A DNA stretch of 64,000 nt from a virus (IMGVR_UViG_3300033142_001406:4138-68137); one strand, 5' to 3'; counted from the stretch's first letter, positions 1 through 51,911 are shown. Made by a program: numbers and translations. Notes: generated from the sequence alone by a model not told the origin.

Positions 1-213
1 GAGGCCTATTGTATCGTTTACGAACTCTTCTATAATAAGTTGTTGAAATAGTTCGTAAAGACCCCTTGTAATATGTTCGTTACTTAAGTTCTCTATATCG
101 TTATAAATAGAACCAATAAATACTGGCTTATCCCCCTCCTTTATCAGTTCCAGTATAAATCTATTACAGATAACGGCTTGCTCTGCAAGCCCCAAGTTAA
201 ATTCAGATTTCAA
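1..213 (-). CDS. Winged-helix-like protein, truncated by the window edge (not in the ORF track)
   Basis: TTG at 213 after an AAGGAG SD; frame open to position 1: MKSEFNLGLAEQAVICNRFILELIKEGDKPVFIGSIYNDIENLSNEHITRGLYELFQQLIIEE..., resembling 3494-3796. Confidence 0.6.
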   Translation of the reverse strand, partial: MKSEFNLGLAEQAVICNRFILELIKEGDKPVFIGSIYNDIENLSNEHITRGLYELFQQLIIEEFVNDTIGL

Positions 214-505
214 TTGTACAGTCTCCTTTATTTACCCACGCTTCCAGCGTGATCTCCCCTTCGTAGAACTTCTCTAAGCACTCCCGGACCATACTCCCGA
301 CCTCTTCAGCCTCTTCGTCTGTCAGCGGGTTGTAGACCCACTTTGCTGCTTTAAAACTGATTCTGGTTCGGTTGGTGGTTATCCTAACTGCCCGTATTGT
401 TACGTAATCTCTGAACCCAAGGTGAATCTGAATCTTATTTAAATCCGTTCGTGAGATTGGTGGTTGTGTGACAACCACTACAACGTAATCGGTTAGCATA
501 CTCAC
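203..505 (-). CDS. Hypothetical protein
   Basis: 100 aa ORF overlapping both neighbours in the operon. Confidence 0.7.
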   Translation of the reverse strand: MSMLTDYVVVVVTQPPISRTDLNKIQIHLGFRDYVTIRAVRITTNRTRISFKAAKWVYNPLTDEEAEEVGSMVRECLEKFYEGEITLEAWVNKGDCTIEI

Positions 506-798
506 CTTTTCTTTGTTACCCGTTGAAATTCTTTATATAAATCTTTACCGTGCGCCGTGAGAACAAGCTGATTTGCAATACTCTTTTTCTCGGAAACTTG
601 CGCGAATACAAGATCCTTATTTGCTAATTTTACCGCACACTTACAAACAAGCGCGTTGTTCATCCCGATTAGTTTGCAGATATCCGGCTGGTGGACAACT
701 GTGTTGGCCCCTACGCAAAGGAATACGTTGAACTGGTTGATATTCCCCCCGAAATAGTTGGAGACAAACTGGAGTGCTTCAGTAATATTACCTCTCAT
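502..798 (-). CDS. MarR-like winged-helix protein (start revised to ATG 798)
   Basis: MRGNITEALQFVSNYFGG-QFNVFLCV...HQPDICKLIG...LVLTAHGKDLY; the longer ORF call overlaps the upstream gene. Confidence 0.75.
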   Translation of the reverse strand: MRGNITEALQFVSNYFGGNINQFNVFLCVGANTVVHQPDICKLIGMNNALVCKCAVKLANKDLVFAQVSEKKSIANQLVLTAHGKDLYKEFQRVTKKR

Positions 799-799
799 A

Positions 800-1153
800 T
801 TATTGTAACTCTTTCTTATAATTATAGATAAATTCAAGCAGCTTATTATATATCCCCACACCCTTTGGGGTGAGTTCCAATACAGATATATTGGGATATT
901 CTGGATGCTTACGGGTTCTGATATAATCGAGCGGCTTTTGACCAGCAACAATCTTATAGTTCTTTGCTGGGCCTAACGATCTGATTATCTTACGTATTTT
1001 CTGCTCCCCCACGTCTATAGCAGCCTTTACCCCGCTCCGTAAAACCATCCCGTTCTCCGCAACGTAAATAAAGAGCAAGAACTGCGTAACGCCGCCCTCA
1101 GTATGAAAATAGCGGTGTCCGAATTTGAGTGCTATAAGCAAATCAGAATCCAT
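800..1153 (-). CDS. MarR-like winged-helix protein
   Basis: QFLLFIYVAE helix, HTH, wing ending LELTPKGVGIY. Confidence 0.75.
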   Translation of the reverse strand: MDSDLLIALKFGHRYFHTEGGVTQFLLFIYVAENGMVLRSGVKAAIDVGEQKIRKIIRSLGPAKNYKIVAGQKPLDYIRTRKHPEYPNISVLELTPKGVGIYNKLLEFIYNYKKELQ

Positions 1154-1156
1154 ACT

Positions 1157-1450
1157 TTAAACCCCGACAAACTCTTTAAAGTTTTTTAAGTAATCCACAC
1201 CCTTGGGTGTGAGGGAGGCTCCTTTTCTTCGTAGGTCGTCTTCATCCACTCTCTCTTCAATCAGTTTCTCTTCAAACAGTCTGAGGACTGCCTTGCTGAC
1301 GGAACTTCTTGATAAGTTTAGGACTTTTTCTAATTCTACGCGGGATATCTCTCTTGCCTCTGCTATATATAGGAACACTCTCAGCACACTTATCGTACCA
1401 GAAAAGTGTTTGTCACACCATCCAACTGCCAGTTCTAAATTACAAATCAT
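1157..1450 (-). CDS. MarR family winged-helix protein
   Basis: SRVELEKVLNLSRSSVSKAVLRLFEEKLIEERVDEDDLRRKGASLTPKG is a typical MarR HTH and wing. Confidence 0.85.
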   Translation of the reverse strand: MICNLELAVGWCDKHFSGTISVLRVFLYIAEAREISRVELEKVLNLSRSSVSKAVLRLFEEKLIEERVDEDDLRRKGASLTPKGVDYLKNFKEFVGV

Positions 1451-1674
1451 ACGAACCCCTTTACAATTTCAACCTTGTACTTTAATACTTTTTCGTCCAG
1501 CCGGTCTTCCATACACGCTATAAACAGTTTCTCAACCCGGCACACTTCGTTCAGATCCAGCGGAAGGTACTTCCACCCCTCGGAGCTGATACGGAACTCA
1601 GTTGTTGTCTCTGCGATCCTAACGGATCTGTTGATCTTATACCCGCCAAGCAACTCGAAGAAATATATAAGCAT
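1447..1674 (-). CDS. Hypothetical protein
   Basis: 75 aa ORF overlapping the next gene's start. Confidence 0.6.
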   Translation of the reverse strand: MLIYFFELLGGYKINRSVRIAETTTEFRISSEGWKYLPLDLNEVCRVEKLFIACMEDRLDEKVLKYKVEIVKGFV

Positions 1675-1690
1675 ATCAATTATTACGGGT

Positions 1691-2035
1691 TCAAGTTTGA
1701 TCCCGGTTAGGGTTATCGTTACGTATTGGTTGATAAATCCGACTCTCCTCTTTTTTGTACTTTTCTTCCAGAACTACAAGCTTTTCCCAATCTTGGAGAG
1801 TCTTAACGTAGTTTGTAGTGTTTAAAATCCTAAATCCGACGTAGATTATGCAGAACGCGCAAAGTAGTACTGCGTAGGATGTGACGTAATCTTTACCAAC
1901 GTAAAACAACCTAAGACTAACCCAAAGGAGAAACACACCTATAGCGGGAAGAATATTCCCGACAAGCGCACCTTCCTTAATCCTTTTTGGAATCTGTCTC
2001 TTAGAGTGTTCCAGCTCCGCTTTTGCGTTTATCAT
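1691..2035 (-). CDS. Small membrane protein (2 TM)
   Basis: Hydrophobic segments ILPAIGVFLLWVSLRLFYV and YAVLLCAFCIIYVGF. Confidence 0.65.
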   Translation of the reverse strand: MINAKAELEHSKRQIPKRIKEGALVGNILPAIGVFLLWVSLRLFYVGKDYVTSYAVLLCAFCIIYVGFRILNTTNYVKTLQDWEKLVVLEEKYKKEESRIYQPIRNDNPNRDQT

Positions 2036-2291
2036 CCTCTCTCATCTCCCTTACACTCCAAGCTAATCCCAAAAGATAACGGTCACTTACTGGCTCTTTG
2101 TCCAAGAGTCTCTGTATCGTTTCGGAGCAAACTTCCGCGAGGCGGTTTCCCCTCCGGCTAAGGGCGCAACTGCTGTAAGATTCTTGATAGATTAACAATT
2201 CCCGAAGCGAAAGCTTCTGAAGATATTCCAAAGCTTGTAACGCCGCAGGATGCGGCTCCGTATCTTTAAGCTGTCCTATACCCATCCTCAT
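2001..2291 (-). CDS. Hypothetical protein
   Basis: 96 aa ORF within the coupled operon. Confidence 0.65.
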   Translation of the reverse strand: MRMGIGQLKDTEPHPAALQALEYLQKLSLRELLIYQESYSSCALSRRGNRLAEVCSETIQRLLDKEPVSDRYLLGLAWSVREMREDDKRKSGAGTL

Positions 2292-2571
2292 CCTCCTTTA
2301 ACACTGCAACCGTGAGTGTTAGGTGTATAATATAGATCTCACACCCCAATTCAGTTATACTTATAAGGCCGCAAGCGTCCCCGCAAATATAACCAGATCT
2401 AAGCAAGAAGCCCAGAACCTCGCAAACTTTTATAGCCCCGAACCTATCGAATTCCTTATATATATTGGTAGCTGATACGGTGTTGTTCTGGTAAAGGCAC
2501 CCCAGCACTTGGAGCTTTTGCAAATCACCTTTAAAGAATTTTAACAGATAATCTCTGTACTGATCTCTCAC
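2266..2571 (-). CDS. Winged-helix protein, paralogue of 2568-2852
   Basis: DYLLKFFKGDLQKLQVLGCL...FLLRSGYI...ISITELG. Confidence 0.7.
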   Translation of the reverse strand: MRDQYRDYLLKFFKGDLQKLQVLGCLYQNNTVSATNIYKEFDRFGAIKVCEVLGFLLRSGYICGDACGLISITELGCEIYIIHLTLTVAVLKEDEDGYRTA

Positions 2572-2852
2572 CTTTCTTGTCCCCCGTTACAATATAACGT
2601 CTCGTATTCTTTATACAATTCTTCACCCTTCGGGGTGACGTAAAGCTGACTCCTTTCTTGGGGTTCTATCATATAACCGTTCCTAAAGAGAAAACTGATT
2701 ATCTCACTCGTTCTAAGCGTCCCAATATATTTGAGATACTTATAAATATCAGCCCCCGTAAACTCGCCCATCCGGCAAATATGACCAAGACAATTTAACT
2801 TCCACACATCCCCGTCAAAATAATCTATAAGAAAATCGTTGTAGTCCTTCAT
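2568..2852 (-). CDS. Winged-helix protein
   Basis: DFLIDYFDGDVWKLNCLGHI...FLFRNGYM...LYVTPKGEELY. Confidence 0.75.
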   Translation of the reverse strand: MKDYNDFLIDYFDGDVWKLNCLGHICRMGEFTGADIYKYLKYIGTLRTSEIISFLFRNGYMIEPQERSQLYVTPKGEELYKEYETLYCNGGQER

Positions 2853-3205
2853 ATTTCCTCCAAACTTTCTGTAAGTTCAAGTAACTCTTCGTAAAGTTTC
2901 TTTCCCTTTGGGCTAAGAAAAATAACGTTGTGTGCAGAGTGTATTTTAGAGGGTTTGCTGTTTATATACCCCAAACCCTTCTGTTTTTTTGAGTCTGTCT
3001 TTGGACAACTGTCCCGGTGCCCATTCCCAAGCATCCCCACCGCTCTCCCGGCTGCTGCCCGACTTATTGAGAGTATTATAAACACTTCACTTTGTTTAAT
3101 CTTCCCAGATTCAGCAACTAAGCAAAACACCCGAAAATACCCAACCTCGTTGCGAAAGTGCTCCGCACAAAAATCTAATATTATCTGTACTTTTTCTAAG
3201 GTCAT
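2849..3205 (-). CDS. MarR-like winged-helix protein
   Basis: FRVFCLVAE...KQSEV...ISRAAAGRAV...GLGYI...IFLSPKGKKLY. Confidence 0.75.
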   Translation of the reverse strand: MTLEKVQIILDFCAEHFRNEVGYFRVFCLVAESGKIKQSEVFIILSISRAAAGRAVGMLGNGHRDSCPKTDSKKQKGLGYINSKPSKIHSAHNVIFLSPKGKKLYEELLELTESLEEI

Positions 3206-3501
3206 ACCCCGACTATCGCCCTTATATATTTCATATTATTATCGTTAATTCCCTCGGGGAACGTTCTTAAAAGAGTCGTAAGCCCCGGCTCAGTAACCGA
3301 AAACTCTGTTACTACGCAACTATCAAAAGCAACTGCTATAATAGAGTGGAGTTCAATATAGGAGTGAACAATCAGCTCTTCTAAGAGTTCGTTTGATTCC
3401 TCCCCGAACAGAACCACAAACTCGCGGATTGGTATGCTGTTGATTGCGTTATAATCTTCAATAATTTCAGATAGTTTCTGAAGTGCTGTCGCTTTAAACA
3501 T
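3202..3501 (-). CDS. Winged-helix-like protein (start revised to ATG 3501)
   Basis: LLEELIVHSYIE...FSVTEPG; similar to 4080-4433. Confidence 0.6.
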   Translation of the reverse strand: MFKATALQKLSEIIEDYNAINSIPIREFVVLFGEESNELLEELIVHSYIELHSIIAVAFDSCVVTEFSVTEPGLTTLLRTFPEGINDNNMKYIRAIVGV

Positions 3502-3796
3502 CCTTCCCCCCCTCAATCTCAATATAGGCCGCCACACCCTTGGGTTTAAGTCTGATATGTCGCAAGCGCCTATCCTCAACTATAAACCCAAAGGTGTGGA
3601 GTTCTACAATAGCCTTCCTAAGTTCTATCGGGTGTACTTCGTCGGCAAGATCGTTTAACAGCTTTGGGATCGTAACCGCTGAATTATAATAGAGAAAGTT
3701 GAGGACCAGTTTGCTGGCCCAAAGCTCTCTATCCAGCTTATCGAGCCACTCCTCAATCTCCGCTGGACTCTTCTTTATTCCGTTTGTCCGGCTCAT
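3494..3796 (-). CDS. Winged-helix protein
   Basis: ELRKAIVELHTFGFIVED...IRLKPKG. Confidence 0.7.
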   Translation of the reverse strand: MSRTNGIKKSPAEIEEWLDKLDRELWASKLVLNFLYYNSAVTIPKLLNDLADEVHPIELRKAIVELHTFGFIVEDRRLRHIRLKPKGVAAYIEIEGGKDV

Positions 3797-4083
3797 ACCC
3801 CGTTCTCTATATCTTCGAATATTCCAAGTTCAATCGCCCCCTTGGGCGTGATATTGAGATCAGCAGAAAGCCCCTCAGAGCCTTTGATCAGCCCTGCAAC
3901 AAAGATGGAAGCGGTGGTGGTGCCCAACAGATAGGGGGATATATCCGGGAACTCCTCGATAATTTCGACGCTGGTAACGTCTTTATTATCTCCAATAAAC
4001 CTAAGCACTTCCACGAACGCTTTTCCTTCTGCCTCTAACTTCTTAAACCACTCAGCGGGTTCTTCAAGATTTTCAGAATTCAT
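3793..4083 (-). CDS. Winged-helix protein
   Basis: EVLRFIGDNKDVTSVEI...IFVAGLI...LNITPKG. Confidence 0.7.
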   Translation of the reverse strand: MNSENLEEPAEWFKKLEAEGKAFVEVLRFIGDNKDVTSVEIIEEFPDISPYLLGTTTASIFVAGLIKGSEGLSADLNITPKGAIELGIFEDIENGV

Positions 4084-4433
4084 ACAAGCAACTCCCGGTT
4101 AACCTTTTTGATTTGTTCCAGTTTATAAAAGCAGAAAGTGTCCCTCAGCTCCCGGTTTCGCTTCGTATCTTCTAAAGCCAGTTCCAGCGCGTCGGGGGAC
4201 ACGTCGACCGTGTTTATCTTAACAATTGATTTCCTTACTTCTAAGATCCCAGCAACGCTGATCAGCTCAAGATCGAAAAGAAGGGAGATATTAACGAGAG
4301 ACTCTTTTCCGTATAACTCAGTGACTTCGCTTACCGGAATCTCTACAATTCGCCCAAGCTTGTTGCAGAGCAAACAGAGCTTGTGGACGATCTGCCCAAC
4401 GAAGTGGTGGTGAGCTTGTCGTGTTGTGTGCAA
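4080..4433 (-). CDS. Winged-helix-like protein
   Basis: IPVSEVTELYGKES parallels IPIREFVVLFGEES of 3202-3501. Confidence 0.55.
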   Translation of the reverse strand: MHTTRQAHHHFVGQIVHKLCLLCNKLGRIVEIPVSEVTELYGKESLVNISLLFDLELISVAGILEVRKSIVKINTVDVSPDALELALEDTKRNRELRDTFCFYKLEQIKKVNRELLV

Positions 4434-4447
4434 TTATCCAACCCCCT

Positions 4448-5104
4448 CTAAATCTCTTCTGCTTTGCAGTACTCAGAAAGTTTAAAGTAAAATCCACGTC
4501 CCTTGGACGTTAGTTTTAAGATTGAAGTGTTGGGGGAATCCGGGCGGGGTTCGCTCTTTATTAAGCCCCTCTCGACAAGCTTGGCAAGCGTTGTGCTCAA
4601 AATCTGAGTGCTGGTTTTACTCTTAAGGCACAACTGGATTCTCTCGATACCAGCACCCTTAGCAGCACCAATAAAGACAAACGCTATAAAGGAGTTGAAC
4701 CCGCCTCCTATTTTAGAAAACCAATAAAAACAAGCCTTTGAGATATCTCCGTATAGGCCACTATTATCCTCGATAATCGAGTCGGACATATCAAAGTAGA
4801 ACTTATCTCCCGCTTTTGTTAAGTCTACGAGTTTTTTATTACGCACTCTCTTGCAAGGTGTTTTAAAGACCAGACCACTTCCGATTTGCTTTTTTCCACA
4901 CATCTCATACTTGTAAGTTATAGGCCCAAGCCGCTGAAAAGTATGGGTTATTCCGCTTAGACCGATACCAGTTTCCCTCGAAACGTCAGACGTATATTTC
5001 AGTTTATCTGCGTCCCCGGTGCTCAGAAAGACTAATAATTGAGTTAACTCACAGCCGTGATTCTCTTTCCAATAATTAAGAGCACTACCGATATCACCTA
5101 TCAC
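4448..5104 (-). CDS. Protein with two tandem MarR-like wHTH domains
   Basis: Two halves starting GDIGSALNYW / GDISKACFYW and ending VDLTKAGDKFY / LKLTSKGRGFY. Confidence 0.8.
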   Translation of the reverse strand: MIGDIGSALNYWKENHGCELTQLLVFLSTGDADKLKYTSDVSRETGIGLSGITHTFQRLGPITYKYEMCGKKQIGSGLVFKTPCKRVRNKKLVDLTKAGDKFYFDMSDSIIEDNSGLYGDISKACFYWFSKIGGGFNSFIAFVFIGAAKGAGIERIQLCLKSKTSTQILSTTLAKLVERGLIKSEPRPDSPNTSILKLTSKGRGFYFKLSEYCKAEEI

Positions 5105-5552
5105 TCTTCACCTTCCTTTCTGTTAGTATCTTTTCAAGTGTACTATAAACAGACTGTTCGATAACTTGCCGTAACCACCCACCTATATTTGCTTGGTTGC
5201 CCAATATTCTAAGCTGGACCGCTGTTATAATCTGCTGGGTTTCGTGATCCTTTAGGGGACACTCAACCCCGGTAATTTCTTTTAATCGGGCTTCATTCAT
5301 ACAACCAGAATCCTCCGCGTATAACTGTTCGCCTTTATTGAGCATACCCAAGTGGTCTGTCTCAAGAGCTTCTGCCAACCTTCTTTGCGTAACCCACCGC
5401 ATACAACTCTTACCAAGTAGGAAATTTGAAGTAGAGGTTTTAGGTACCCCGGAGATTTTGTGAAGTTGTGTAAGGGATAGCTTCCGCTTATTCAACTCGT
5501 ACCGGAGTGCTAATCTGAAAAAATAAACAACGTCGTGATCACCGTTTATCAC
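5094..5552 (-). CDS. XRE/Cro-C1-type HTH protein with C-terminal extension
   Basis: LSLTQLHKISGVPKTSTSNFLLGK...QRRLAEALE. Confidence 0.8.
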   Translation of the reverse strand: MINGDHDVVYFFRLALRYELNKRKLSLTQLHKISGVPKTSTSNFLLGKSCMRWVTQRRLAEALETDHLGMLNKGEQLYAEDSGCMNEARLKEITGVECPLKDHETQQIITAVQLRILGNQANIGGWLRQVIEQSVYSTLEKILTERKVKSDR

Positions 5553-5796
5553 TGTTCTTCTCCTCCAACAAATCTCTACCGAGATTTAGAACCTCTAAAA
5601 CAGTCATCCCGAAATAATCAGCAAGTGCTTCTTGCAGACTGAAACCGAGACCATCCCGGTCACCCCTAACAAATCTATAAATATTACCCGCACTTACATC
5701 CATAGCAAACGAAATAGAGTGTGGATTTAGCCCCGCTTCGTCTAACAGTTGAATAATAGCTGTCCTATAATAGCCCTCAAGTGTTGGTTTTTTCAC
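5539..5796 (-). CDS. XRE-type HTH protein
   Basis: YYRTAIIQLL...VSAGNIYRFVRG...QEALADYFGMTVLEVLNLG. Confidence 0.8.
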   Translation of the reverse strand: MKKPTLEGYYRTAIIQLLDEAGLNPHSISFAMDVSAGNIYRFVRGDRDGLGFSLQEALADYFGMTVLEVLNLGRDLLEEKNSDKR

Positions 5797-5797
5797 C

Positions 5798-6058
5798 CTA
5801 AGCTCTCTTCTTGAATTTAGACCGATTTGCTGATAGTTCAGCCCCCAAATTCAGCAGCTCAAGATGGGTAAGTCCAAAATATTCAGCTACTTTTTGTTCG
5901 ACGTCCAAACGCAGCCAATAAGTTCCCCGCAGAGCAGCGCTTAAATAGGTCGGTGCTAAATCAAGATCCCGGCACACTTGAACGCCCAATATTCCGGTTT
6001 CCTTGAGAAGATAATTTAGAGCTTTTTTGTAGTAATTAATTATAGTTACTTTTCGCAC
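5798..6058 (-). CDS. XRE-type HTH protein
   Basis: YYKKALNYLL...LAPTYLSAALRG...EQKVAEYFGLTHLELLNLG. Confidence 0.8.
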   Translation of the reverse strand: MRKVTIINYYKKALNYLLKETGILGVQVCRDLDLAPTYLSAALRGTYWLRLDVEQKVAEYFGLTHLELLNLGAELSANRSKFKKRA

Positions 6059-6315
6059 AATTCAATTCCTTCCACCTCGTTATTAATATGTAGTTGCTCT
6101 CCGAGATTAATCATAGCTAAGTGCGAGGTATCAAAAACTCTTGCAAGCCTCTCTTCAATCTCGTAAGTTGTATTTTTATTCTCTTGGAAAGCCCCGTAAA
6201 TAGCGGAAGCGGCTGTCTTTGTTTTTTTTGTGAGGTAAGCTCCGTTGTAGCCCTTCTCTTTCGTCAAGTGTTTAAGTGCTATTCTAAAATAATCGTGAAT
6301 ATCTAATTCTTTCAA
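6046..6315 (-). CDS. XRE-type HTH protein
   Basis: YFRIALKHL...EERLARVFDTSHLAMINLGEQL. Confidence 0.75.
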   Translation of the reverse strand: MKELDIHDYFRIALKHLTKEKGYNGAYLTKKTKTAASAIYGAFQENKNTTYEIEERLARVFDTSHLAMINLGEQLHINNEVEGIELCEK

Positions 6316-6328
6316 TTTCCTCTTACTC

Positions 6329-6673
6329 CTATTTATTATTATTATTATATTTTAGCAATTCGGATTCTATTTCTGCTGGGGATAACTTACCATCCCGCAC
6401 TTTCTCCAGTAGATTCATACTCGCTATAAAAGAGGTCTGTTTTACAATCCTCTCTCTCTTTTTTGAGGCGTTCCAAGTTGAAAACATATTCCCGAGCATA
6501 CAAACAAAAGTAAATACGCAGTAATCAGTTAAACCCAACGAGAGATATTCTTTTGTCCCGTGTATCGCAAAAAGGGGAGTAAGAAAAAGAGTGGTAACAA
6601 AGAAGATATTATCCAGATCAAGAAGCTGTCTTATTGATAACTCCTTCTTAAATAAGCTCTTGATATTTCTCAC
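6329..6673 (-). CDS. Small membrane protein (2 TM)
   Basis: IFFVTTLFLTPLFAI and YCVFTFVCMLGNMF hydrophobic segments. Confidence 0.65.
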   Translation of the reverse strand: MRNIKSLFKKELSIRQLLDLDNIFFVTTLFLTPLFAIHGTKEYLSLGLTDYCVFTFVCMLGNMFSTWNASKKRERIVKQTSFIASMNLLEKVRDGKLSPAEIESELLKYNNNNK

Positions 6674-6855
6674 TTTACGAGTCCCACTTTCTGCAAGTGC
6701 TTAACTATATTGAGGCAAGATCTTACTGCCTCACTTGCCAGAGCCTCTTCTGGGTGTGGTTTAGGTTCAATATTCCAACTCACGTTTGCTACTTCGTCGC
6801 AAACGTCTGTAATCTCGATTGTTGCTTTAAATATCCTCTTGTTCTCTTCGTTCAT
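6670..6855 (-). CDS. Hypothetical protein
   Basis: 61 aa coupled ORF. Confidence 0.6.
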   Translation of the reverse strand: MNEENKRIFKATIEITDVCDEVANVSWNIEPKPHPEEALASEAVRSCLNIVKHLQKVGLVK

Positions 6856-7030
6856 CTTCGTTCCTTTTATCGACTAATTTAGCAAGTAAAAGAGCAATTA
6901 TAGTTAACGTTGGCGATTCGCTCAAAGGCAGATTAAGAATATTCGGGGGTCCCTCGAAACAAATATCGAGCTTCCCGTCCGGCAGATCTGTAAGAATTAC
7001 TCTGACGGGTGTGTCTTTGTTAATACTCAA
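6827..7030 (-). CDS. Hypothetical protein
   Basis: 67 aa, TTG start after GAGGAGG SD. Confidence 0.6.
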   Translation of the reverse strand: MSINKDTPVRVILTDLPDGKLDICFEGPPNILNLPLSESPTLTIIALLLAKLVDKRNEDERREQEDI

Positions 7031-7044
7031 AAAGTGTCCTCCTC

Positions 7045-7314
7045 TTAGTCCAGAAATTCACTTAATATTTCTAATAAATTCAGCCCTTTTTCAGAAGGGA
7101 TGCCCTTGGGCTTTTCAAACAGCGGGACCACCAACCCCGGTTTTATAAATCCTCCTTTTAAGAGGTTTGTCCTCGCTTCCGTATAATCAACGGTCTCGCA
7201 AGCTCCCCGCGAGAACAGATCGTCGATATTGGGAGTGTCGTCTCTAAACCAACTTAAAAACACGATAATCTCCCAATTTGAAATCTTATCAGTGGAAGAT
7301 TGCTCCTTCAGCAC
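7045..7314 (-). CDS. Possible winged-helix-like protein
   Basis: NLLKGGFIK...PSEKGLNLL resembles the wing motif of the array. Confidence 0.5.
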   Translation of the reverse strand: MLKEQSSTDKISNWEIIVFLSWFRDDTPNIDDLFSRGACETVDYTEARTNLLKGGFIKPGLVVPLFEKPKGIPSEKGLNLLEILSEFLD

Positions 7315-7753
7315 TTTCGGCTCCTTTCGCAGCTTCTCTTTCTTTTTCTGCCATACTTGAGCGGAAACCTAAGTATGACCCTCTATTTAGAGTTATATCA
7401 TACACGCCCGGCTCTTTTGTTGAGATAGTCCCAAACAACGGTGTGAGTACAAATTGACCCTCTTCCTCCATATGAGCCTCCGAGCAGGTTTGAACAATAG
7501 CAAAGAATATATTGTTGTATTCTTCGATAGTTAGTCCGTCTTTTTCTATTCTATCCGAGATATCAATCCGGTAATTAAACTGCTTAGTTGCTACAACTTG
7601 TTCAAGGAGTTTTTGGAGAATACTAGCACCCACCTCGCAAAGCTCCGGGCCAAAAAAGGACATCTGAACCTCCCCTTCTGGAGCTTCTTCTCTCATCTTT
7701 TTTAGATCTTCTCGCGAAAGCTCTTTGTCTATTACTTTTAATTTAACGGTCAT
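7289..7753 (-). CDS. Hypothetical protein, first gene of the leftward operon
   Basis: 154 aa, ATG start, upstream non-coding region. Confidence 0.7.
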   Translation of the reverse strand: MTVKLKVIDKELSREDLKKMREEAPEGEVQMSFFGPELCEVGASILQKLLEQVVATKQFNYRIDISDRIEKDGLTIEEYNNIFFAIVQTCSEAHMEEEGQFVLTPLFGTISTKEPGVYDITLNRGSYLGFRSSMAEKEREAAKGAESAEGAIFH

Positions 7754-7929
7754 TCCTATCTCTCTTTCTCCAGATATTATATTATATTATCTCTGATAGT
7801 ATTCAGTGGTATTACTTTTCTTCCGTTGTCCAAAATAACTCCCAAATAGTCTATAAGCAGTATCGGAGATACGTATACAAGTCAAGCACTTTCTCGGTAT
7901 GCGCCGACGCAACTTAAGAACATCCGTAT

Positions 7930-8330
7930 GGGCGCATTCTGGAGACTTTACCACACTCGCGTATACATACGTATAGGCCCTGCTGCTTAAGTTCCCAGAA
8001 CAGCGCGTGAGCGGGTCTTACGGGAGTATAAAGACTATCCCAGAACCCACGCTACGCGCCCAATTCTTCCTAACACTATAGACTATACCTTAACGGTATA
8101 GTATAAGTTGATCCTAATAGTATATTAACAAGATGTTAATAAATACAAACCCGTAGGGTTTGTTTAATCTAATAAACTAATCTCTTATTAAGTTTAAATT
8201 AAGAGATAATTAGAAAACCCTTTAGGGTTTTCCTTATTAACTTAATAAATTAAATTAATCTAAGAATAAAGATCCCCTTTAGGGGATCTTCTTTTAATCT
8301 CTTATTAGAGAATTAAATATAAGAGATTAA
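7930..8330. other. Candidate replication origin region: long imperfect hairpin followed by an AT-rich palindrome cluster
   Basis: Inverted repeats at 7930-8061, 8082-8102, 8124-8140, 8145-8163, 8213-8232, 8269-8290, 8294-8330; directly downstream of the initiator-like gene. Confidence 0.55.
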
Positions 8331-8353
8331 TCAAAATATCTTTTTAAAGAAAC

Positions 8354-9286
8354 TTAAGCATATTTTGATTCCACTTCGAAAGCAGCAGCCAGCTCGGAGA
8401 GCTGTCTGTCTCTGCTTTTCAGAGTATTTATATTTTTAGGTATCCCTTTTCCAACACCAGCCAGCAGCGCTGACACGCTGCGGTCTGCTATCGGTTGTTG
8501 TCCAGCAACTTCTTTTTGGGGCTGCTTCTGTATGTATTCAGCAGCGTTAAGGTTTTTAGCAGCGGATATCCCGGCAGTCCTAAGCCACGCCCACGGGTGG
8601 CGTATTCGCTGCCAGAGACGGACGAGAATATACAGACATTCTTGTATTGCGTCCGGTCTGACCCGCTGTTTCCAGAGATAATTTATTGCAGCTTCTGCGT
8701 TAAACCGCCGCTTTTTTTGCGGAAGGGACTCAAACTTTCTGATTAGAGGCTTCGCAGCCTCCAGAAACTCAATCCGTTCCCTCTGGGTATTTTTTTCCGA
8801 AACCACCGCAGGTGCAGCTTTGGGGTTTTTAATATTATCTAGCTTAGAAGTTTCCGTTTCTTTATTAGCGGGGGTTGTTTTTTGAGCGGCCAAACCACCG
8901 GGTATTCCGGCGTTTTGTAGGGCTTTATCATACTCAGTATGCCAGATCAGATAATAGTTGTTGTTCCGAACCTCAGCCGCGTGAGCCGCTTTGCGGTCAC
9001 GGTGAGCCGCAGACTCGACAACAACAAGCTTTTTGCGCTTCAAACCGCTGATTATTTTACGGATGGTGTCCGGGTGTCTTCCGAGCTGCTTCCCCAGATA
9101 TTCGAGACTCGGGTAGGCGAAGCCGTGAATTTTAGATTGGAAATTTAAGAGCTTTAGGAGGTTTTTTTCTGTTGCAGTTATATATTCCCCCATATTATCC
9201 AGCACTTTATCGAAGGGAACTGGGAGGTTAAGGATCGGAATTAACTGGTCTATTTTGTAAATTTGGGCTTGATTTTTAGAATTCAT
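8354..9286 (-). CDS. Putative replication initiator with N-terminal HTH (HTH_36-like)
   Basis: ITATEKNLL...AYPSLEYLGKQLGRHPDTIRKIISGLKRKKLV...NNYYL, then a low-complexity linker and helical C-terminal domain. Confidence 0.65.
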   Translation of the reverse strand: MNSKNQAQIYKIDQLIPILNLPVPFDKVLDNMGEYITATEKNLLKLLNFQSKIHGFAYPSLEYLGKQLGRHPDTIRKIISGLKRKKLVVVESAAHRDRKAAHAAEVRNNNYYLIWHTEYDKALQNAGIPGGLAAQKTTPANKETETSKLDNIKNPKAAPAVVSEKNTQRERIEFLEAAKPLIRKFESLPQKKRRFNAEAAINYLWKQRVRPDAIQECLYILVRLWQRIRHPWAWLRTAGISAAKNLNAAEYIQKQPQKEVAGQQPIADRSVSALLAGVGKGIPKNINTLKSRDRQLSELAAAFEVESKYA

Positions 9287-9295
9287 CTGCTATAG

Positions 9296-9364
9296 TCTTT
9301 CTCAGTTTTGAGGGTTATCTTTCTCAGTTTTAAGGGTTCGTTCTTTTACGGGTTCTTTTACGGG
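9296..9364. repeat. Iteron-like direct repeats upstream of the initiator gene
   Basis: TCTTTCTCAGTTTT(G/A)AGGGTT x2 (period 22) then TTCTTTTACGGG x2 (period 12). Confidence 0.7.
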
Positions 9365-9885: not shown

Positions 9886-10365
9886 TTGACAGAGAAGAAA
9901 TCCAAATCCAAATCGAAAGTCAAAACCCCGAAGAAAATCATTCCAAAAGAAACAGCTTTGGCAGCACCCGAGGGTGCGTTGATAAAAGCTTACTCAGCTA
10001 AGAAGAAAAAAGAACTTACAACTAGGAAGTTAACTCAGAAAGAAACTAAAGCACTCGCAATAAGTGAGCGGCTGGCTCACGAAGGATTCGACGTTATCGG
10101 AGAAACCCTCAGTCTTTTCAAAGATCTGAAAAGGCAAGCTAAAAAAGACAAATCCAACAAATCACTTCTTAAGCAGCAGCAAGAGATTCTTTTTAAATTG
10201 TTAGATATGAACTTCGCAAGACCCCGCCCCGTAGACCAGAGGATGAGTTCAGACCGCATCCAGTTCAACATCCAGATCCCGTCAGCAACCCCAGCGGGCA
10301 GTCCAAAAGTGACCACAATTGACGTGAATAAGAAAGAGATAGGGATAGAAAATAAGAATGAGTAA
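9886..10365 (+). CDS. Putative terminase small subunit
   Basis: Basic 159 aa protein immediately before terL. Confidence 0.55.
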   Translation: MTEKKSKSKSKVKTPKKIIPKETALAAPEGALIKAYSAKKKKELTTRKLTQKETKALAISERLAHEGFDVIGETLSLFKDLKRQAKKDKSNKSLLKQQQEILFKLLDMNFARPRPVDQRMSSDRIQFNIQIPSATPAGSPKVTTIDVNKKEIGIENKNE

Positions 10366-10480
10366 GTAAGTAAGAGAGTAAGAGAGTAAGTAAGAGACTG
10401 GCAAAGTAAGTAAGTAAGTAAGAGAGTGAGTAAGAAACTAAGAAGGATAAAAAGTGAGAGAATAAGAAAGAGAGAAAGAT
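10359..10480 (+). repeat. Degenerate 4-bp-periodic repeat (AGTA/AGAG/AGAA), copy 1
   Basis: AGTAAGTAAGTAAGAGAGTAAGAGAGTAAGTAAGAG... Confidence 0.8.
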
Positions 10481-11923
10481 ATCGCCTTAGAAAGTATTGA
10501 TTACAAAATTCTGCCAACCTACGCGAAGATCATAAATGACCCAAATCCTTACATATTTTGTCGGGGACCAGTTGGAAGCGGCAAGTCTTCCGGGTCAATT
10601 TGGCACATCTTTTTGAACGCGATAAACCAAGCTCCAAACGCAAAAGGAGTGCGTCACAGTCGCTACGCGATAATCAGATCCTCTTATCCAGCACTCAAAT
10701 CGACAGTTATAAAATCTGTAATTGATTGGTTTGGCCCGATCGTCAAGATCGTTTACGACATACCGATTCGAGGTATGATCAAAACACCCCTCCCGGATGG
10801 AACTTACGTTGAGTGCGAACTTATATTTCTTTCAACCAGCCTTGATACAGACGTTAAGAAGCTTCAATCACTTGAATTAACTGGAGCTTTTATCAACGAA
10901 ACAACTGAAGTCCCTTTTGAGATCTTCAGTATGCTGAAGTCGCGTGTTGACAGATACCCGTCCCAGCGGGGTGTGGGGACAACCAAGAAATTTATACTTT
11001 GCGACTATAACTCTTGCGACACCGACCACTGGCTTTACAGACTCGCAGAAGAGATTAAACCAGAGAAGCACTCCTTTTACGCCCAACCTCCCGCGCTTTT
11101 ATTTGACGGGAAAGATTACCGAGTCAACCCCGAAGCAGAGAATATCGAGAACCTCCCAGCAACCTACTATACAGATATGGTTTACGGGCAAGATCCAGAC
11201 TGGGTGAGTGTTTACGTTCTAAATAATTACGGGCAGGTCCGTACCGGACGCCCAGTTTACAAAGCTTACGCAGACCGGGTTCACTGCTCCCCGGTAGATA
11301 TATTACCCCTGCGGGGTGTCCCTCTGGTTATCGGCTGCGACGTTGGACTCGACTGTTCGATAGTAATTACCCAACTTACACCCACCGGACAACTGCTGGT
11401 TATTGACGAGGTGAGTTGCGAGAACACATCCATTCTGGAGTTCGCTCACGATATTGTCTGGCCACTTTTACGGAACAAATACAGAGAGTTTGAGTACGAG
11501 ATTATCTGCGACCCAGCAGCAAAATTCAGATCGGCAAACGATAAACAGTCTGCTTTGGATATTATGATCCGGGCAGGTTTACCAGTTCGGATCGCGTATA
11601 CAAACGAGCCTCTGGCGAGGAGGGAAGCAGTAAACTTCTTCCTACGGAAGCAGATAGGAGGAGTAAGTGGCTTCTCCCTTTCACCACGTTGCAAAGTATT
11701 AAGAAAAGGATTTATAAGCGGGTATCGGTACTCAAAGTTGAGTAATTCCAATATGTTCAAAGAGAAGCCCGAGAAGAATTCTTTCAGTCACCCCCACGAC
11801 GCTTTACAGTACGCGCTACTAGAATTGAGCAAGGGACGGGTTTTAAGAAAACGCCGACACTCCAATAGACCAACCTCAGATTTTAAGTATGACGGCACTC
11901 CAGCAACCAACGTAGGCTACTAA
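10481..11923 (+). CDS. terL: Terminase large subunit (start extended upstream; probable ATC start)
   Basis: Walker A GPVGSGKS lies in frame at 10565-10588, upstream of the called start; Walker B-like AFINE; nuclease IGCDVG...HPHDALQY. Confidence 0.9.
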   Translation: MALESIDYKILPTYAKIINDPNPYIFCRGPVGSGKSSGSIWHIFLNAINQAPNAKGVRHSRYAIIRSSYPALKSTVIKSVIDWFGPIVKIVYDIPIRGMIKTPLPDGTYVECELIFLSTSLDTDVKKLQSLELTGAFINETTEVPFEIFSMLKSRVDRYPSQRGVGTTKKFILCDYNSCDTDHWLYRLAEEIKPEKHSFYAQPPALLFDGKDYRVNPEAENIENLPATYYTDMVYGQDPDWVSVYVLNNYGQVRTGRPVYKAYADRVHCSPVDILPLRGVPLVIGCDVGLDCSIVITQLTPTGQLLVIDEVSCENTSILEFAHDIVWPLLRNKYREFEYEIICDPAAKFRSANDKQSALDIMIRAGLPVRIAYTNEPLARREAVNFFLRKQIGGVSGFSLSPRCKVLRKGFISGYRYSKLSNSNMFKEKPEKNSFSHPHDALQYALLELSKGRVLRKRRHSNRPTSDFKYDGTPATNVGY

Positions 11924-31838: not shown

Positions 31839-34800
31839 ATGGATCAAAAAGACCTTATAATCAATCTGGCCCGCCGTAATAATTTCGACCTTGAAAGAGC
31901 ACTTAACGACGGGCACTCTTACGAGGATATTTTAGCGTATTTGCAAGAAGAATCGGGAGTTACCGGAGAAAGGCCAGAAGGAGATCCCGGTTTTATCGGC
32001 GGCGTAAAGGACTTCGGACTCGGTATCGCCAGAGGCGCTCTTGTCTCTCTACCGCAAAAAGTGGGACAGACATTCCAGCGTTGGGATGACGAAGGTGGGG
32101 ATGACACTCTCCGAGATTTAGGAATCTCGCTTGAAGAAACTGGAGACGAGAATCTCCAAGAACAACCTTGGCTTCAAGAGTCCCGACTGTCTATAGAAAA
32201 ACGGCAAGAATCCCCTTGGAATATACGAGGCTGGGGTTACTCAGCCGGGGACAGTCTTATTACCTCACTCGCCCCGGCAGCGGTGGGTGCGGCGGCGGTA
32301 GTCGCGGGGGCACCCGCAGCGGTGGGGGTTGGTATCGGTGTTGTAACGGTCGGTGCTTTATTCTACGGATCGGAAGCAGAACAAACCTACAGACGTGCCC
32401 TCCCAGAACTCGGGCACGAAGAAGCGTTAGAATTGTCCAGACTAACCGGACTGATAGAAGCCGGGGGAGAGATCGTTGCCGACCTTATCCCGCTCTGGTT
32501 TTTTAAAGCACTTCCCAGTCCCGCCAGAAAGAATATCCTCAAAGCCCTTACCTCAAAAAAAGGTGTCCGGGGGATTATTTGGGATATTATTAAAGTTGAG
32601 GCCCTTGAAGTCAGCACTGAAATAGGGCAGTCTACAGCGCAAGGATTAGCCGAAGAAAGATTCGGTATGGGGGACCAGCCGCTACTTGATAACGCTTTAG
32701 CCGTTATCGGTCCGACCCTAATTGTCGGCGGTCTGTATGGTACAGCCGGATCTGTCGGCGGTAACGCCCGACGTAGCTGGATGGTGGAAACTCTTAAAGA
32801 TCCCAAAGCTCCGATAGAAGATAAACGGAAGATTATAGCGGAGATAACCGAAGCAGTTACGAAGAAAGACGCGGAGCTGGGTGCTGCTTTTTCGAAGCAA
32901 GCAACCGCCCTTGCCGAAGCTAAGAAGCCCGTTCTGATTGGGGAGGATAGTAAGTACGAAAGTAAGAAAGAAACTAAGCAAGAGAGTAAGAAAGAAAGAG
33001 AGATAGTAAGTAAGCCAGAGGCAGAGATAGAAAGAGAGACGGACGTTCAGAGAGGGGCGTTAGATACTAATTTTATTGCAGATCCTAACGATAGTCTCCA
33101 AGTCCAAAATCAAAAAAGAATACGCGGGATAGTTGGACCGGAGGCAAAGGGGAGCACCACTTTTGAAGATACGTTAAGCGACGGTTCTGAAAGACCCGGA
33201 GTAACCCCCTCCCAATTCAACAAGGGATTATCAGAAGAGGTTCTGAAAAACCACTTTGAGGCTGTTGGAAAACAGAAAGAGGGTGAGGCATCCCGAAATC
33301 AAAGTATGCTTATAAAGCGTTTTAATTATACGCTTAACCGCTTTAAGCAGCTTGTAAAGTATAAAGATACTTACGCTTATTCTCTCCAAGAAATCGGGGA
33401 TCAATACGAGCAAGCACTCCAAAGTACCAATTTAAGAGATCTTTCTTCAACAAGGGATCTGTTCACCCGACTACAATCCCAAGAACAAAAAATAACTGAG
33501 GTTGACCAGCAACTTATCAAAGCTGCTGAAGACCTCCTCTCCCTTGGGGGCGAGACTAAATCAGTTGACCAGCAGACTTTAGCCCGTATTCAAAAAGAGA
33601 TAAATCCAGAGACTTTAAAGCAACAAGCCGAACGAAGACAACAGCTTATCAACGACGCGCAAGAGCGTGGAAACAAAGTTCTTCAAGAAGCTGAATACAA
33701 AAACTCCCCGGAGTACGCAAAGGAAGTTGACAAAGAAAGACAACAGCAAGAAGCGGATCAGATTAAAAAAAGACAAGCCGAAACCAAACAAGCCGCCGAA
33801 GCTAAAAAGAAGAAAGACGAGCATACCAAAGCTATAGACGACCTTTACGAGAAAACCAAGAAGAGACTCTCCGAGTCTCCCGTATTTTTAAGAAACGAAG
33901 ATCTGTCCAAGCAGATCCTAAACGCTATTCACACCGAGCGGTTGGGAGCTGCCGAAATTGAGCGTGTTATCCGGCAAGCAGAGTTAAATCGTCTGGAAGA
34001 GAGTGGAACTCTCCAGAGTATCACCGAGATGATAGAGGACAAACAATCACCCGGCAAAAAAGACAAAGGCGCAATAGCGCGGGGTGTTGTCCAGCAAGAC
34101 AAAGACAAGGCCCAAGCAGCCAAAACAAGGGCTGCTGACAAAAAGACCCAAGAAAAAGCAGACGAGGTAACGGAACAAGAACGCCTTGGAGCTGCTGCAA
34201 TAAAGCGCCGTGACTTAAAGGGAAGATTAAAAGATAAGTACGGTACCAAGAGGCAAAGGAAGAAGGATGTTGAAGCGGCGGTAAAAGAAAAACAAGAACA
34301 AGATCAGAAGGTTGAGGAGCTTGGAGACGAAAAGGGTAGCACTCCCAAGAAGCCGAAGAAGAAACAAACTCCTCCTCCGAAAAAGAAATCTGCCCTTCGG
34401 GTAAAGCTGGACGATAAGAAGAAAAAGAAAGAGGAGCCTAAACCAAAGCCCCCCAAGAAGAAAAAGGCTACCCCCGTTGAAAAGAAAGTTGTAACCCCAA
34501 GGGTTACACCACCGAAGAAGAAAACCGTTACTGACGCAGCTAAAAAAGAAGCAGCGGCAGAAAAGAAAAGAGAAGCCGCCGCCAAGAAATATCAGGCCAA
34601 CAAAAAGAAACGAGAAGCTGACGTTGACGAGAACAACCGCCTCGTCCAGAAGGGCAAGGAGCTGATCCCGACGATCCGGCTCGAAGATGCGCGGGAAGTC
34701 GGAGAGATGGGCGAACTTCTGGAGAAGGGAGAGATCACCCCAGACGAGTGGGACTCTTTTGTTGAGCGGATGTTCAAAGAGAACCGAGCAAAAGGTAAGA

Positions 34801-42017: not shown

Positions 42018-42066
42018 TGCGATCCTCCTTTTTTTGTATATTTGTTTGCAATCCACAATATATACA

Positions 42067-42125
42067 ACATACGCGGCGCGTATGTCAATATATTTGTTGA
42101 CAATTCCACCCTATCCGCTTATAAA
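42067..42125. promoter_or_regulatory. Divergent promoters with a palindromic operator
   Basis: + strand TTGACA(42097)-17-TATAAA; - strand TTGACA at 42088; palindrome ACATACGCG-G-CGCGTATGT at 42067-42085. Confidence 0.7.
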
Positions 42126-42164
42126 GAAGGTAAGCAAGAAAATAAGAAAATAAGGAGGAGGAGG

Positions 42165-43250
42165 ATGACAAATCAGAGAACAACAAAGCTTGAAGGGTAT
42201 ACCGGAGTGTACAAGTACGCGTGTTCTGACGGTCGGATTGCGTACCACATACACTACGACAGTTCCCGGAAACTCGCGGGTTATAAAGATGAGGGCTGGA
42301 CTCCAGAAAAGGCTCAAGCGGAGAGAACGCGCCGGATGGACACGCGGAGAGAGTTCAGTAAAGCAGCGAAAATCGAACGGTTTGACGACGCAGCCGAGGC
42401 GTATTTTCGGTGTATGGTCGGAAACGGAAAGACGGGGGAATCAATCCGAGTGGCCAGATCCCGGTACGAAAATCATATTCGACCGCTTCTCGGTTCTACC
42501 AATTTAAAGAACGTAAGTGTTCAGAAAATCGAAGATCTGAAGTTTGATTGGGCAAAGAGGGGTTTGACTGATCTGAACAAAGCGTCTGTATTTACGACAC
42601 TTTCAGCGATAATCAACCGAACATACGCAAACGGGGACTGGCCGTCAACGAAGAATCCGCTTGCTTTCGTCCAAAGGCTAAAGTGTGAGTCCCGGAGGGA
42701 GCGCGCCCTTTCTTTCGAGGAGTACGAGAGGTTGCGGAATATGTTTAAAACGTTTGACGACCCGCTTTGCTTGACCGTCTTCGAGATAGCTATTTATACC
42801 GGGCTTCGGGGTTCGGAGCTTGAACAGCTCCGTTGGGAAGATGTAGATCTGGACAACGAATTCTTGACTGCCCAAACTAAAAACAAGAACGTAAAACAGA
42901 AAACCCGCAGAGTTCGACTACACCACAAGGTGGTCAACGCCCTCTACGCGTGGATTGAGGAAACCGGAGAGATTGGCCCCTCTGAATTAGTATTCCCAGA
43001 AGGTTTACCAAAGAATACAATCAAGAAAACTATCAGTATGCTTAGTCTTAACAGAGGTTTAGAACCCAACTCAAAAAAGCGAGTGACCTTCCACACTTTC
43101 CGGCACACCTTCGCAACTTGGCTTGTTCTCCAAGGTGTTGATATTATTACACTTAGAGATCTGCTGGGACACCACTCCGTTACGATGACGGAACGTTATA
43201 TGCACCACGCTCCGAGTGCCGGGGACGAGGCTGTATTAGCACTTAAATAA
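42165..43250 (+). CDS. int: Tyrosine recombinase / integrase (start revised to ATG 42165)
   Basis: TGLRGSEL, HTFRHTFATWL, LLGHHSVTMTERY catalytic motifs; N-terminal arm-binding-like domain. Confidence 0.9.
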   Translation: MTNQRTTKLEGYTGVYKYACSDGRIAYHIHYDSSRKLAGYKDEGWTPEKAQAERTRRMDTRREFSKAAKIERFDDAAEAYFRCMVGNGKTGESIRVARSRYENHIRPLLGSTNLKNVSVQKIEDLKFDWAKRGLTDLNKASVFTTLSAIINRTYANGDWPSTKNPLAFVQRLKCESRRERALSFEEYERLRNMFKTFDDPLCLTVFEIAIYTGLRGSELEQLRWEDVDLDNEFLTAQTKNKNVKQKTRRVRLHHKVVNALYAWIEETGEIGPSELVFPEGLPKNTIKKTISMLSLNRGLEPNSKKRVTFHTFRHTFATWLVLQGVDIITLRDLLGHHSVTMTERYMHHAPSAGDEAVLALK

Positions 43251-51834: not shown

Positions 51835-51911
51835 TGGAAGACCAGATAGGAGTCGAACCTATATCACCCTGCGTCAAAGGCAGGTGCTCCACCGGATTGA
51901 GCTACTGGCCT
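51835..51911 (-). tRNA. tRNA with anticodon TTG (Gln), CCA encoded
   Basis: AGGCCAG/CTGGTCT acceptor, GCTC/GAGC D stem, CCTGC-CTTTGAC-GCAGG anticodon arm, ATAGG-TTCGACT-CCTAT T arm. Confidence 0.9.

Follow-up and report, generated by a model that had tools for sequence, protein, structure and literature searches.

Multiple diverged copies of a small MarR-like regulator within and outside a 30-gene phage operon

The 64,000-nt stretch of DNA considered here (the window, whose numbering is used throughout unless a position is prefixed with "genome") comprises bases 4138–68137 of the 68,137-bp contig IMGVR_UViG_3300033142_001406. Its left end is occupied by an array of small minus-strand genes, and we examined this array together with the MarR-like winged-helix proteins, designated family A, of which the phage encodes several copies. 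The first 100 bases of the contig are repeated at genome position 68023, and the collection record describes a virus with direct terminal repeats and a completeness of 100%. Phage genes were found for a large terminase, a portal, an N4-type major capsid protein and an internal virion protein, and further genes encode a polymerase of the family A DNA polymerase class, a DnaB-like helicase and NrdD. The genome also holds genes for a Rep-like HTH_36 protein, for ParA and a tyrosine integrase, and for a protein of 2853 aa that contains an LPD38 domain. The nearest capsid proteins in GenBank phages, those of Stenotrophomonas StenR_269, Xanthomonas DES1 and Pseudomonas Rollin, were 36–37% identical.

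The array belongs to an operon of 30 genes on the minus strand, which runs from window position 7753 down to genome 2760 (~9.3 kb) and has its left end ~1.4 kb past the window edge. A first-pass annotation of the window had listed about 11 tightly coupled paralogous genes running off that edge. All of the open reading frames (ORFs) it listed were recovered on the minus strand with the boundaries it had given, and the array was found to continue into genome 2760–4350. This continuation holds small genes at genome 3921, 3602, 3327 and 3017 as well as the remainder of the gene that enters the window at 1–213 (genome 4090–4350), and it ends in an Xre-type gene (genome 2760–3005) facing a convergent plus-strand gene (genome 2147–2728). 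The genes are indeed tightly packed: 18 of the 29 junctions overlap (by exactly 4 nt in eight of them), the other 11 are gaps of 1–16 nt, and a Shine–Dalgarno-like motif precedes 21 of the 30 start codons. Stand-alone DNA-binding-type domains account for 21 of the 30 genes, 16 being winged-helix or winged-helix-like and five Xre.

Family A consists of seven genes with eight domains, five of the genes (including one two-domain fusion) lying in the operon and two elsewhere. They are listed here, each gene being named hereafter by its lower coordinate; the phrog_9665 and MarR_2 entries refer to profile matches, and pI is the isoelectric point.

502–798, minus strand: family A MarR-like gene, 98 aa, pI 9.51; BLASTP against the genome 1765 copy E 6e-8, matches to the A1 and A5 profiles, phrog_9665 E 0.0038
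800–1153, minus strand: family A MarR-like gene, 117 aa, pI 9.63; BLASTP and profile matches, phrog_9665 E 2.6e-5
1157–1450, minus strand: family A MarR-like gene, 97 aa; MarR_2 31.6 bits (cut-off 27), E 1.9e-7, phrog_9665 E 7.7e-11
2849–3205, minus strand: family A MarR-like gene, 118 aa, pI 8.79; BLASTP and profile matches, phrog_9665 E 2.9e-8
4448–5104, minus strand: two-domain family A gene, 218 aa, two MarR-like units fused in tandem; two profile matches, MarR_2 20.3 bits on the C-terminal half, phrog_11046 E 1.2e-5
56474–56917, minus strand: dispersed family A gene, 147 aa, pI 9.72, upstream of replication genes; BLASTP against the genome 1765 copy E 5e-12, MarR_2 25.9 bits, phrog_9665 E 1.1e-10
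genome 1765–2082, minus strand, outside the window: most canonical MarR-like copy, the seventh gene and eighth domain of the family

All-against-all BLASTP connected the members at E 1e-12 to 5e-4. The gathering score of Pfam MarR_2 (PF12802) was exceeded by 1157 alone; 56474 and 4448 scored below it, and 502, 800 and 2849 gave no MarR_2 match at E up to 1. The phrog_9665 "transcriptional regulator" hidden Markov model (HMM) was matched by six of the seven genes (E 9.2e-13 to 3.8e-3), 4448 matching phrog_11046 instead. A family A profile retrieved 1738 proteins at E up to 1e-3 from 1.84 billion representatives, mostly of 105–125 aa, and 33 of the 40 closest outside relatives matched MarR_2. 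Against the sequences of the Protein Data Bank (PDB) the same profile gave 32 matches at E up to 0.01, nearly all to MarR, SlyA or SarA proteins, with 3nrv the best at E 9e-6. Family A therefore belongs, by sequence, to a known phage MarR-like regulator family (MarR_2, phrog_9665). The array reported in the first-pass annotation is real and larger than described, but family A is the only part of it that is demonstrably MarR-like, and the proposal of an undescribed system does not hold for a family that is already known and annotated. What is new is its multiplicity, the fusion, the lost integrase synteny and the acidic relatives described below.

Family A shares the winged-helix core of the bacterial MarR/SlyA/SarA repressors, with profile matches to their solved chains, but its proteins measure 97–118 aa against 139–178 aa for the matched bacterial MarR chains. 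The two-domain protein of 4448 resembles, as known from sequence, the two-domain SarA homologue SarS (PDB 1p4x) in carrying two MarR-like units per chain; its halves are only ~20–27% identical to the other copies. SarS acts as a pseudo-dimer. A homodimer prediction for the 1157 protein scored 0.35 against a mark of 0.42, which gives no verdict either way. Among the 150 best outside matches of family A, four were also two-domain fusions (P0008, P0011, P0044 and P0054), and P0008 carries an additional C-terminal HNH nuclease.

The copy number of family A in this phage is exceptional, with eight domains against one in every other record examined. The A5 profile, built from outside sequences only, found eight domains in this genome (E 6e-25 to 3e-5) and exactly one in each of five Autographiviridae and each of two IMG/VR records. 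An HMM likewise made from outside sequences found a single domain per locus in 31 of 31 fetched loci (two from IMG/VR and 29 metagenomic, L032 repeating L010; at least 9 kb long in 13) and eight here; the fetched loci had been found with one peptide pattern, which skews the sample towards a single clade of the family. When the outside relative P0013 was compared with GenBank phages by tblastn, 62 records were matched, each in one place; they comprised HTVC019P-type pelagiphages, P-SSP7 and other cyanopodoviruses, roseophages, Rhizobium phages and Pseudomonas LUZ100. The literature searched described no phage with MarR-like genes in a multi-copy array.

The known single-copy homologues of integrase-bearing T7-like phages (P-SSP7 gene 0.7 (PSSP7_011), HTVC019P gp10, LUZ100 gp10, RHEph01 gp08 and CRP-113 gp5) belong to the same family (phrog_9665) and resemble family A in being basic proteins of ~100–120 aa with an N-terminal helix, a winged helix-turn-helix (wHTH) and an "LTxKG" wing. 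They differ in setting. In all five Autographiviridae whose context was checked, the homologue directly precedes an integrase and a phage RNA polymerase, whereas none of the seven genes of this phage lies beside the integrase (42042–43250, away from all copies) and no phage RNA polymerase gene adjoins any of them. For the LUZ100 protein, a role as the repressor that decides between lysis and lysogeny at the promoter of the polymerase has been proposed but not demonstrated (PMC10134795).

The origin of the copies was approached with a tree of the eight own domains and 70 outside representatives (116 columns, quick search). Six own domains fell on one side of a branch with a Shimodaira–Hasegawa-like approximate likelihood ratio (SH-aLRT) support of 89, and the label "own" required two changes, against a mean of 7.7 after shuffling, with none of 500 shuffles that low. 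The best tree holding all eight own domains together had a log-likelihood 30.7 above that of the free quick tree and an approximately unbiased test value (p-AU) of 0.786; branches in these trees are long, and the tool warned of long-branch joins. These results are compatible with a single origin in this phage lineage followed by duplication, which the tree does not reject, and to that extent the duplication-diversified set proposed by the first-pass annotation stands for family A.

The copies have diverged at their DNA-contact residues, as had also been proposed. Across the outside family the recognition helix carries a conserved S-R-N motif (frequencies 0.90/0.92/0.62) and the wing a D...R pair (0.82/0.80). 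Of the eight own domains, that of genome 1765 alone keeps S-R-N intact; 56474 retains S-R, and the remaining domains read SK, GR, CK, RK, TH and ST. The wing D...R is retained in 1157 and genome 1765 only. The conserved S-R-N motif of the T7-like regulators is thus lost, and the conserved contact residues of the wider family altered, in most copies of this phage.

Between the family A genes lie further small genes, which are listed here with the other features of the operon.

1–213 (genome 4090–4350), minus strand: acidic winged-helix-like gene, 86 aa, pI 4.17, of which the window holds the 5' part (71 codons); paralogue of genome 3327–3587
203–505, minus strand: family F gene, 100 aa, not winged-helix-like; paralogue of 1447–1674 (BLASTP E 0.001, Smith–Waterman z 6.7), no Pfam match at E 0.01
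1447–1674, minus strand: family F gene, 75 aa, not winged-helix-like; paralogue of 203–505
1691–2291, minus strand: two interposed ORFs of other kinds, one of 114 aa that includes a hydrophobic stretch and one of 96 aa; no above-cut-off Pfam match and no hhalign link of at least 20%
2266–2571, minus strand: family B gene, 101 aa, pI 5.28, winged-helix-like, paired with 2568
2568–2852, minus strand: family B gene, 94 aa, pI 4.91, with weak profile links to family A
3202–3501, minus strand: family E gene, 99 aa, acidic, pI 4.44; winged-helix topology in an AlphaFold2 (AF2) model
3494–3796, minus strand: family D gene, 100 aa, winged-helix by the Atlas model, predicted TM-score (pTM) 0.62
3793–4083, minus strand: family D gene, 96 aa, acidic, pI 4.12, paired with 3494
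4080–4433, minus strand: ORF, 117 aa, start codon uncertain, pI 6.96, marginal paralogue of 3202
5094–6315, minus strand: four tandem Xre/Cro-type helix-turn-helix paralogues (mutual BLASTP E 7e-11 to 8.5e-5)
7045–7314, minus strand: 89-aa ORF, winged-helix-like by motif alone
7753–8340, minus strand: putative leader/regulatory region with three terminator-like hairpins, AT-rich palindromes and promoter-like sites upstream of the operon

Several of these genes form pairs, much as the first-pass annotation had sorted them. Its grouping of what is here family A (502, 800, 1157, 2849, 4448 and 56474) was significant, as were 2266/2568 (family B; BLASTP E 1.5e-11, Smith–Waterman z 20) and 3494/3793 (family D; E 0.002, z 9.1, 0 of 1000 shuffles), while 3202/4080 (family E) was marginal (E 0.08, z 3.5, 8 of 1000 shuffles, 27% identity). 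The gene at 1–213 had been placed with 3494/3793 and pairs instead with genome 3327–3587 (z 8.9, 0 of 1000 shuffles; hhalign 69%). As for the distant relatives it named, 56474 was significant by BLASTP, whereas 7045 and 56895 were similar at the level of the motif only, with no profile match; 7045 gave no Pfam, NCBIfam or profile match and no hhalign link of at least 20%.

The fold of the genes outside family A was assessed with profiles and models. Family B is linked to family A by hhalign (83.6% over 79 columns) and by the A1 profile, which matched 2568 at E 0.0044; 2568 also gave weak matches to HTH_45 (E 0.0058) and phrog_11046 (E 0.0025), and a family B profile (alignment of 2568 and 2266) had SSV1 F-93 as its best PDB match at E 0.024. 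The AF2 model of 3202 reached a predicted local distance difference test (pLDDT) of 77.6, the other four models 46–56. It shows a helix, a long helix, a two-strand hairpin and two helices (H2–17, H25–45, E49–57 and E61–69), and all 50 matches listed for it by VIA-align were winged-helix-domain proteins, mostly transcription regulators, headed by TubR (Z 7.9) and followed by MarR, SarS, Sso10a-2, PadR, F93 and others down to Z 6.3; the top Foldseek rows were also of the winged-helix kind, but at E of at least 0.02. For 3494 the AF2 model was poor (pLDDT 59). Among its listed Atlas neighbours, eight of the ten clusters are named as wHTH-type regulators (HxlR, ArsR, MarR and FilR1; TM 0.64–0.75 over residues 7–100), one of the eight being without a common Pfam family, and the other two are an RDD-family cluster also bearing the ArsR-type HTH_5 and an unannotated hypothetical one. 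We conclude with moderate confidence, from structure models or weak profiles, that the six genes of the pairs 2266/2568, 3494/3793 and 3202/4080 encode winged-helix proteins. For genome 4090, 3327, 3602 and 3017 there are fold leads from hhalign links of 69%, 57% and 30%, together with a sub-threshold Sso10a_fam match for genome 3017 (E 0.027) and, for genome 4090, a language-model lead from Atlas to MarR_2, HTH_45 and WHD_ArnR1 clusters at 0.87–0.88, which is a lead only. PDB sequence searches with genome 3017 and 3602 returned nothing relevant.

The small stand-alone winged-helix proteins SSV1 F-93, STIV F93 and Sso10a are similar in size and fold, and F93/F-93 and Sso10a-2 recurred among the fold matches of 3202. 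These proteins, the F93 type being from archaeal viruses, are DNA binders from unrelated hosts, and the matches to them are weak; 3202 is strongly acidic instead.

A sceptical account is that family A alone is real and that the rest of the small ORFs share no ancestry, being early ORFans that evolve fast and differ in fold, with their "LTxKG" ending over-read. It agrees with the lack of any above-threshold match of the non-A genes in Pfam, PHROG or NCBIfam and with the behaviour of a deep outside profile (130 relatives plus family A), which picked up none of them save 2568 (E 0.005) and with which the hhalign probabilities dropped. A broader wing motif, found in 21 of 283 ORFs of at least 50 aa with 15 of them in the array, was moreover defined only after the sequences had been viewed. 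Against it, the wing motif [LIV][TSK]PKG noted by the first-pass annotation had been fixed beforehand, and all six of its occurrences among the same 283 ORFs lie in the array, where 500 shuffles gave 0.27 ± 0.50 (maximum 3). Two independent structure models, those of 3202 and 3494, are winged-helix. Nine hhalign links of at least 20% were found among nine candidate units (with a tenth between family A and the Xre family) and none in pairs involving ten control units (nine single ORFs and the F pair). Smith–Waterman z-scores of at least 3 occurred in 17 of 139 cross-family candidate pairs, 8 of 361 candidate–control pairs and 0 of 170 control–control pairs, the candidates scoring higher among themselves than against controls (Mann–Whitney p 1e-8, the pairs not being independent). 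We accordingly regard the sceptical account as unlikely.

The proteins also differ in charge. Six family A genes have a pI of 8.8–9.7, close to the outside median of 9.33. The eleven non-A candidates, by contrast, have a pI of 4.12–5.78 in nine cases, followed by 6.84 and, for 4080, 6.96. Over the contact segment, defined as the 42 residues ending at the wing glycine and thus covering recognition helix and wing, the net charge is +1 to +9 in family A (outside median +3), in keeping with DNA binding, while it is -9 in 3202 (which has no K or R there), -7 in genome 4090, -6 in genome 3017 and -3 in 3793. With contact segments this negative, the strongly acidic members are unlikely to use the canonical face on DNA, and it is here that the results diverge most from the first-pass annotation.

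Few relatives were found for either the array or the phage. Families B, D and E, represented by 2568, 3494 and 3202, had no relative in 50,697 phage records (tblastn, E up to 0.1). A word-indexed search of a 5.8-billion-protein collection returned for family A (four hits) and for families D and E (two hits each) only proteins of this genome, and blastn of window 1–8000 against the phage collection gave no match. When the major capsid protein was searched for in IMG/VR and in the metagenomes of the Joint Genome Institute (JGI), nothing closely related came up; a 27%-identical protein was found in a Clostridiales metagenome-assembled genome, on a 68,149-bp contig (locus L012) that is nearly as long as this phage and carries no family A match. 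StenR_269, DES1 and Rollin likewise carry none.

The remaining features of the locus can be described briefly. The four tandem Xre genes gave weak, sub-threshold HTH_3/HTH_26 matches; a fifth Xre gene, at genome 2760–3005, closes the same operon and scored 36.2 bits against HTH_3 (cut-off 23). Upstream of the operon, terminator-like hairpins and promoter-like sites occupy 7850–8340; the three GC-cored hairpins alternate with AT-rich palindromes at 8100–8340, between the Rep-like gene and the operon. The region 7753–8340 would be the start of the operon, which would be expressed as one early transcript. Just upstream of the Rep-like gene (8354–9286), two adjacent 21-nt repeats that are 95% identical and iteron-like lie at 9296–9338. 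Beyond the left end of the operon, the family A gene genome 1765–2082 diverges across 64 bp from the plus-strand gene genome 2147–2728, which encodes a 193-aa CxxCxxCC protein (PF03692, E 1.6e-9); this is a classic regulator–target layout. The adjoining ~760 bp (genome 1004–1765) have no convincing ORF or Rfam family, and an Rfam search of genome 1–4400 found no family.

Elsewhere, degenerate AGTA/AGAG arrays with a 4-nt period occur at 10321–10495, before the large terminase gene, and at 32937–33055, within the 2853-aa gene, and a lone tRNA-Gln (anticodon TTG) lies at 51835–51911 on the minus strand, between replication genes. The avoidance of CATG seen in the first-pass annotation extends to the genome, with 0 occurrences in 68,022 bp against 19.9 expected from trinucleotides, and may be linked to the abundance of GTG/TTG starts; CTAG, too, is scarce, with 16 occurrences where 104.6 were expected.

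Taking the locus as a whole, we favour, at somewhat better than even confidence, a lineage-specific expansion of a small MarR-like regulator into diverged DNA-binding copies, with acidic members acting via protein contacts. The ~30-gene, 9.3-kb polycistronic operon, probably early, sits in a phage with an integrase, ParA and a Rep-like protein, and its core would be an old expansion, specific to this lineage, of the regulator that T7-like temperate podoviruses carry once, beside the integrase. Double-stranded DNA is the most likely target of the seven family A proteins, which, since the contact residues of recognition helix and wing have changed in most copies, would bind it at different operators. 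They are probably dimeric, the two-domain fusion acting as a pseudo-dimer. They could provide several separately addressable repressors or activators for the phage's own lysis, lysogeny or maintenance programme, and might also act on host or competitor promoters. The nine to eleven winged-helix or winged-helix-like proteins of ~90–115 aa encoded between them, faintly related to family A and without relatives elsewhere, are mostly acidic, and the acidic ones would serve as protein-contact modulators or decoys instead of DNA binders.

Several observations weigh against the expansion we favour. The synteny of MarR-like gene, integrase and RNA polymerase that marks the known homologues is absent from this phage. 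No related phage with an array was found in IMG/VR, the JGI metagenomes or the GenBank phages. For five of the eight family A domains the best of 143 outside matches, a pick from 1.84 billion proteins, outscores the best copy in the same genome, which implies that the copies are old and makes multiple acquisition possible. The gene that matches MarR_2 best, 1157, encodes a protein with a pI of 6.6, which is not basic. Only one of the five AF2 models of 3202 is confident, and its Z-scores of 6.3–7.9 fall in the range that the tool calls common (<8). Finally, five genes (genome 4090, 3327, 3602 and 3017, and window 7045) are called winged-helix-like from motif-level or language-model leads only.

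The acidic winged-helix-like proteins could alternatively be decoys or poison subunits that bind winged-helix regulators of host or phage, or other host DNA-binding proteins, and so serve as anti-repressors or in anti-defence, with family A as the matching DNA binders. Their negative contact faces and faint kinship to family A would suit such a role, as would the lack of relatives that commonly marks conflict genes evolving at speed. Support for the fold extends to some members only, however, and acidic and basic genes are not regularly paired along the operon, and we consider this rather unlikely.

The first-pass annotation had instead seen a DNA-binding arsenal, in which all ~16–18 small proteins would be sequence-specific binders silencing or reprogramming host and defence promoters, with the poisoning of host MarR-type dimers or a shielding of phage DNA as further possible roles. 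The occurrence of the winged-helix fold or motif throughout the array, the diverged recognition helices and the apparent early operon are consistent with this, and it fits the basic family A, but ten of the eleven non-A members have a pI of 4.1–6.84 (4080 having 6.96), and recognition helix and wing carry a net -6 to -9 in three of them, two with 0–1 basic residues. Nor did an operator search of the window find a repeated operator family or any dispersed repeat family tied to the array; a 19-nt repeat at 856, 1195 and 3532 was rejected as an operator, being merely the coding sequence of the LTPKGV wing. Similarity to defence-system regulators was not found either, PADLOC and NCBIfam giving sub-threshold matches only on the array (WH_III-A 0.037, JetA 0.034, Sso10a_fam 0.027). 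An arsenal made up of all the small proteins is thus quite unlikely.

A bolder reading, which we likewise think quite improbable, is that the winged-helix scaffold has been turned into a protein-targeting toolkit. Repeated duplication of one MarR-like gene would have given two sets of progeny: proteins stripped of all basic residues at the DNA-contact face, now acting as acidic decoys or poison subunits aimed at winged-helix regulators and defence sensors of the host or of rivals, and basic copies with new promoter targets. The operon would in that case amount to a host-takeover module with two arms, of a type that has yet to be described.

A hetero-immunity library, in which each family A copy would be a repressor for the operators of another phage or plasmid and guard the lysogen or plasmid carrier from superinfection, is highly improbable: the proposal of lysogeny repression for the single-copy homologue of LUZ100 (PMC10134795), the integrase, ParA and Rep-like genes and the diverged recognition helices would accord with it, but the copies cluster together and not with different outside phages, which fits duplication better than capture, and they lie in a long operon with many other genes and not in separate immunity regions.

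Phages usually carry a handful of regulators, and 21 DNA-binding-type genes in an operon of about 30 lies far above that number. Such richness suggests either an unusually layered regulatory programme or a fold repurposed for host conflict. The value of the system is limited for now by the phage being a singleton without found relatives. In T7-like temperate phages the lone MarR-like gene is a proposed and unproven lysis/lysogeny switch, and the seven diverged copies found here offer a ready-made series of variants in specificity built on a common scaffold, which could be used to map the residues that govern operator choice and to build orthogonal small repressors.

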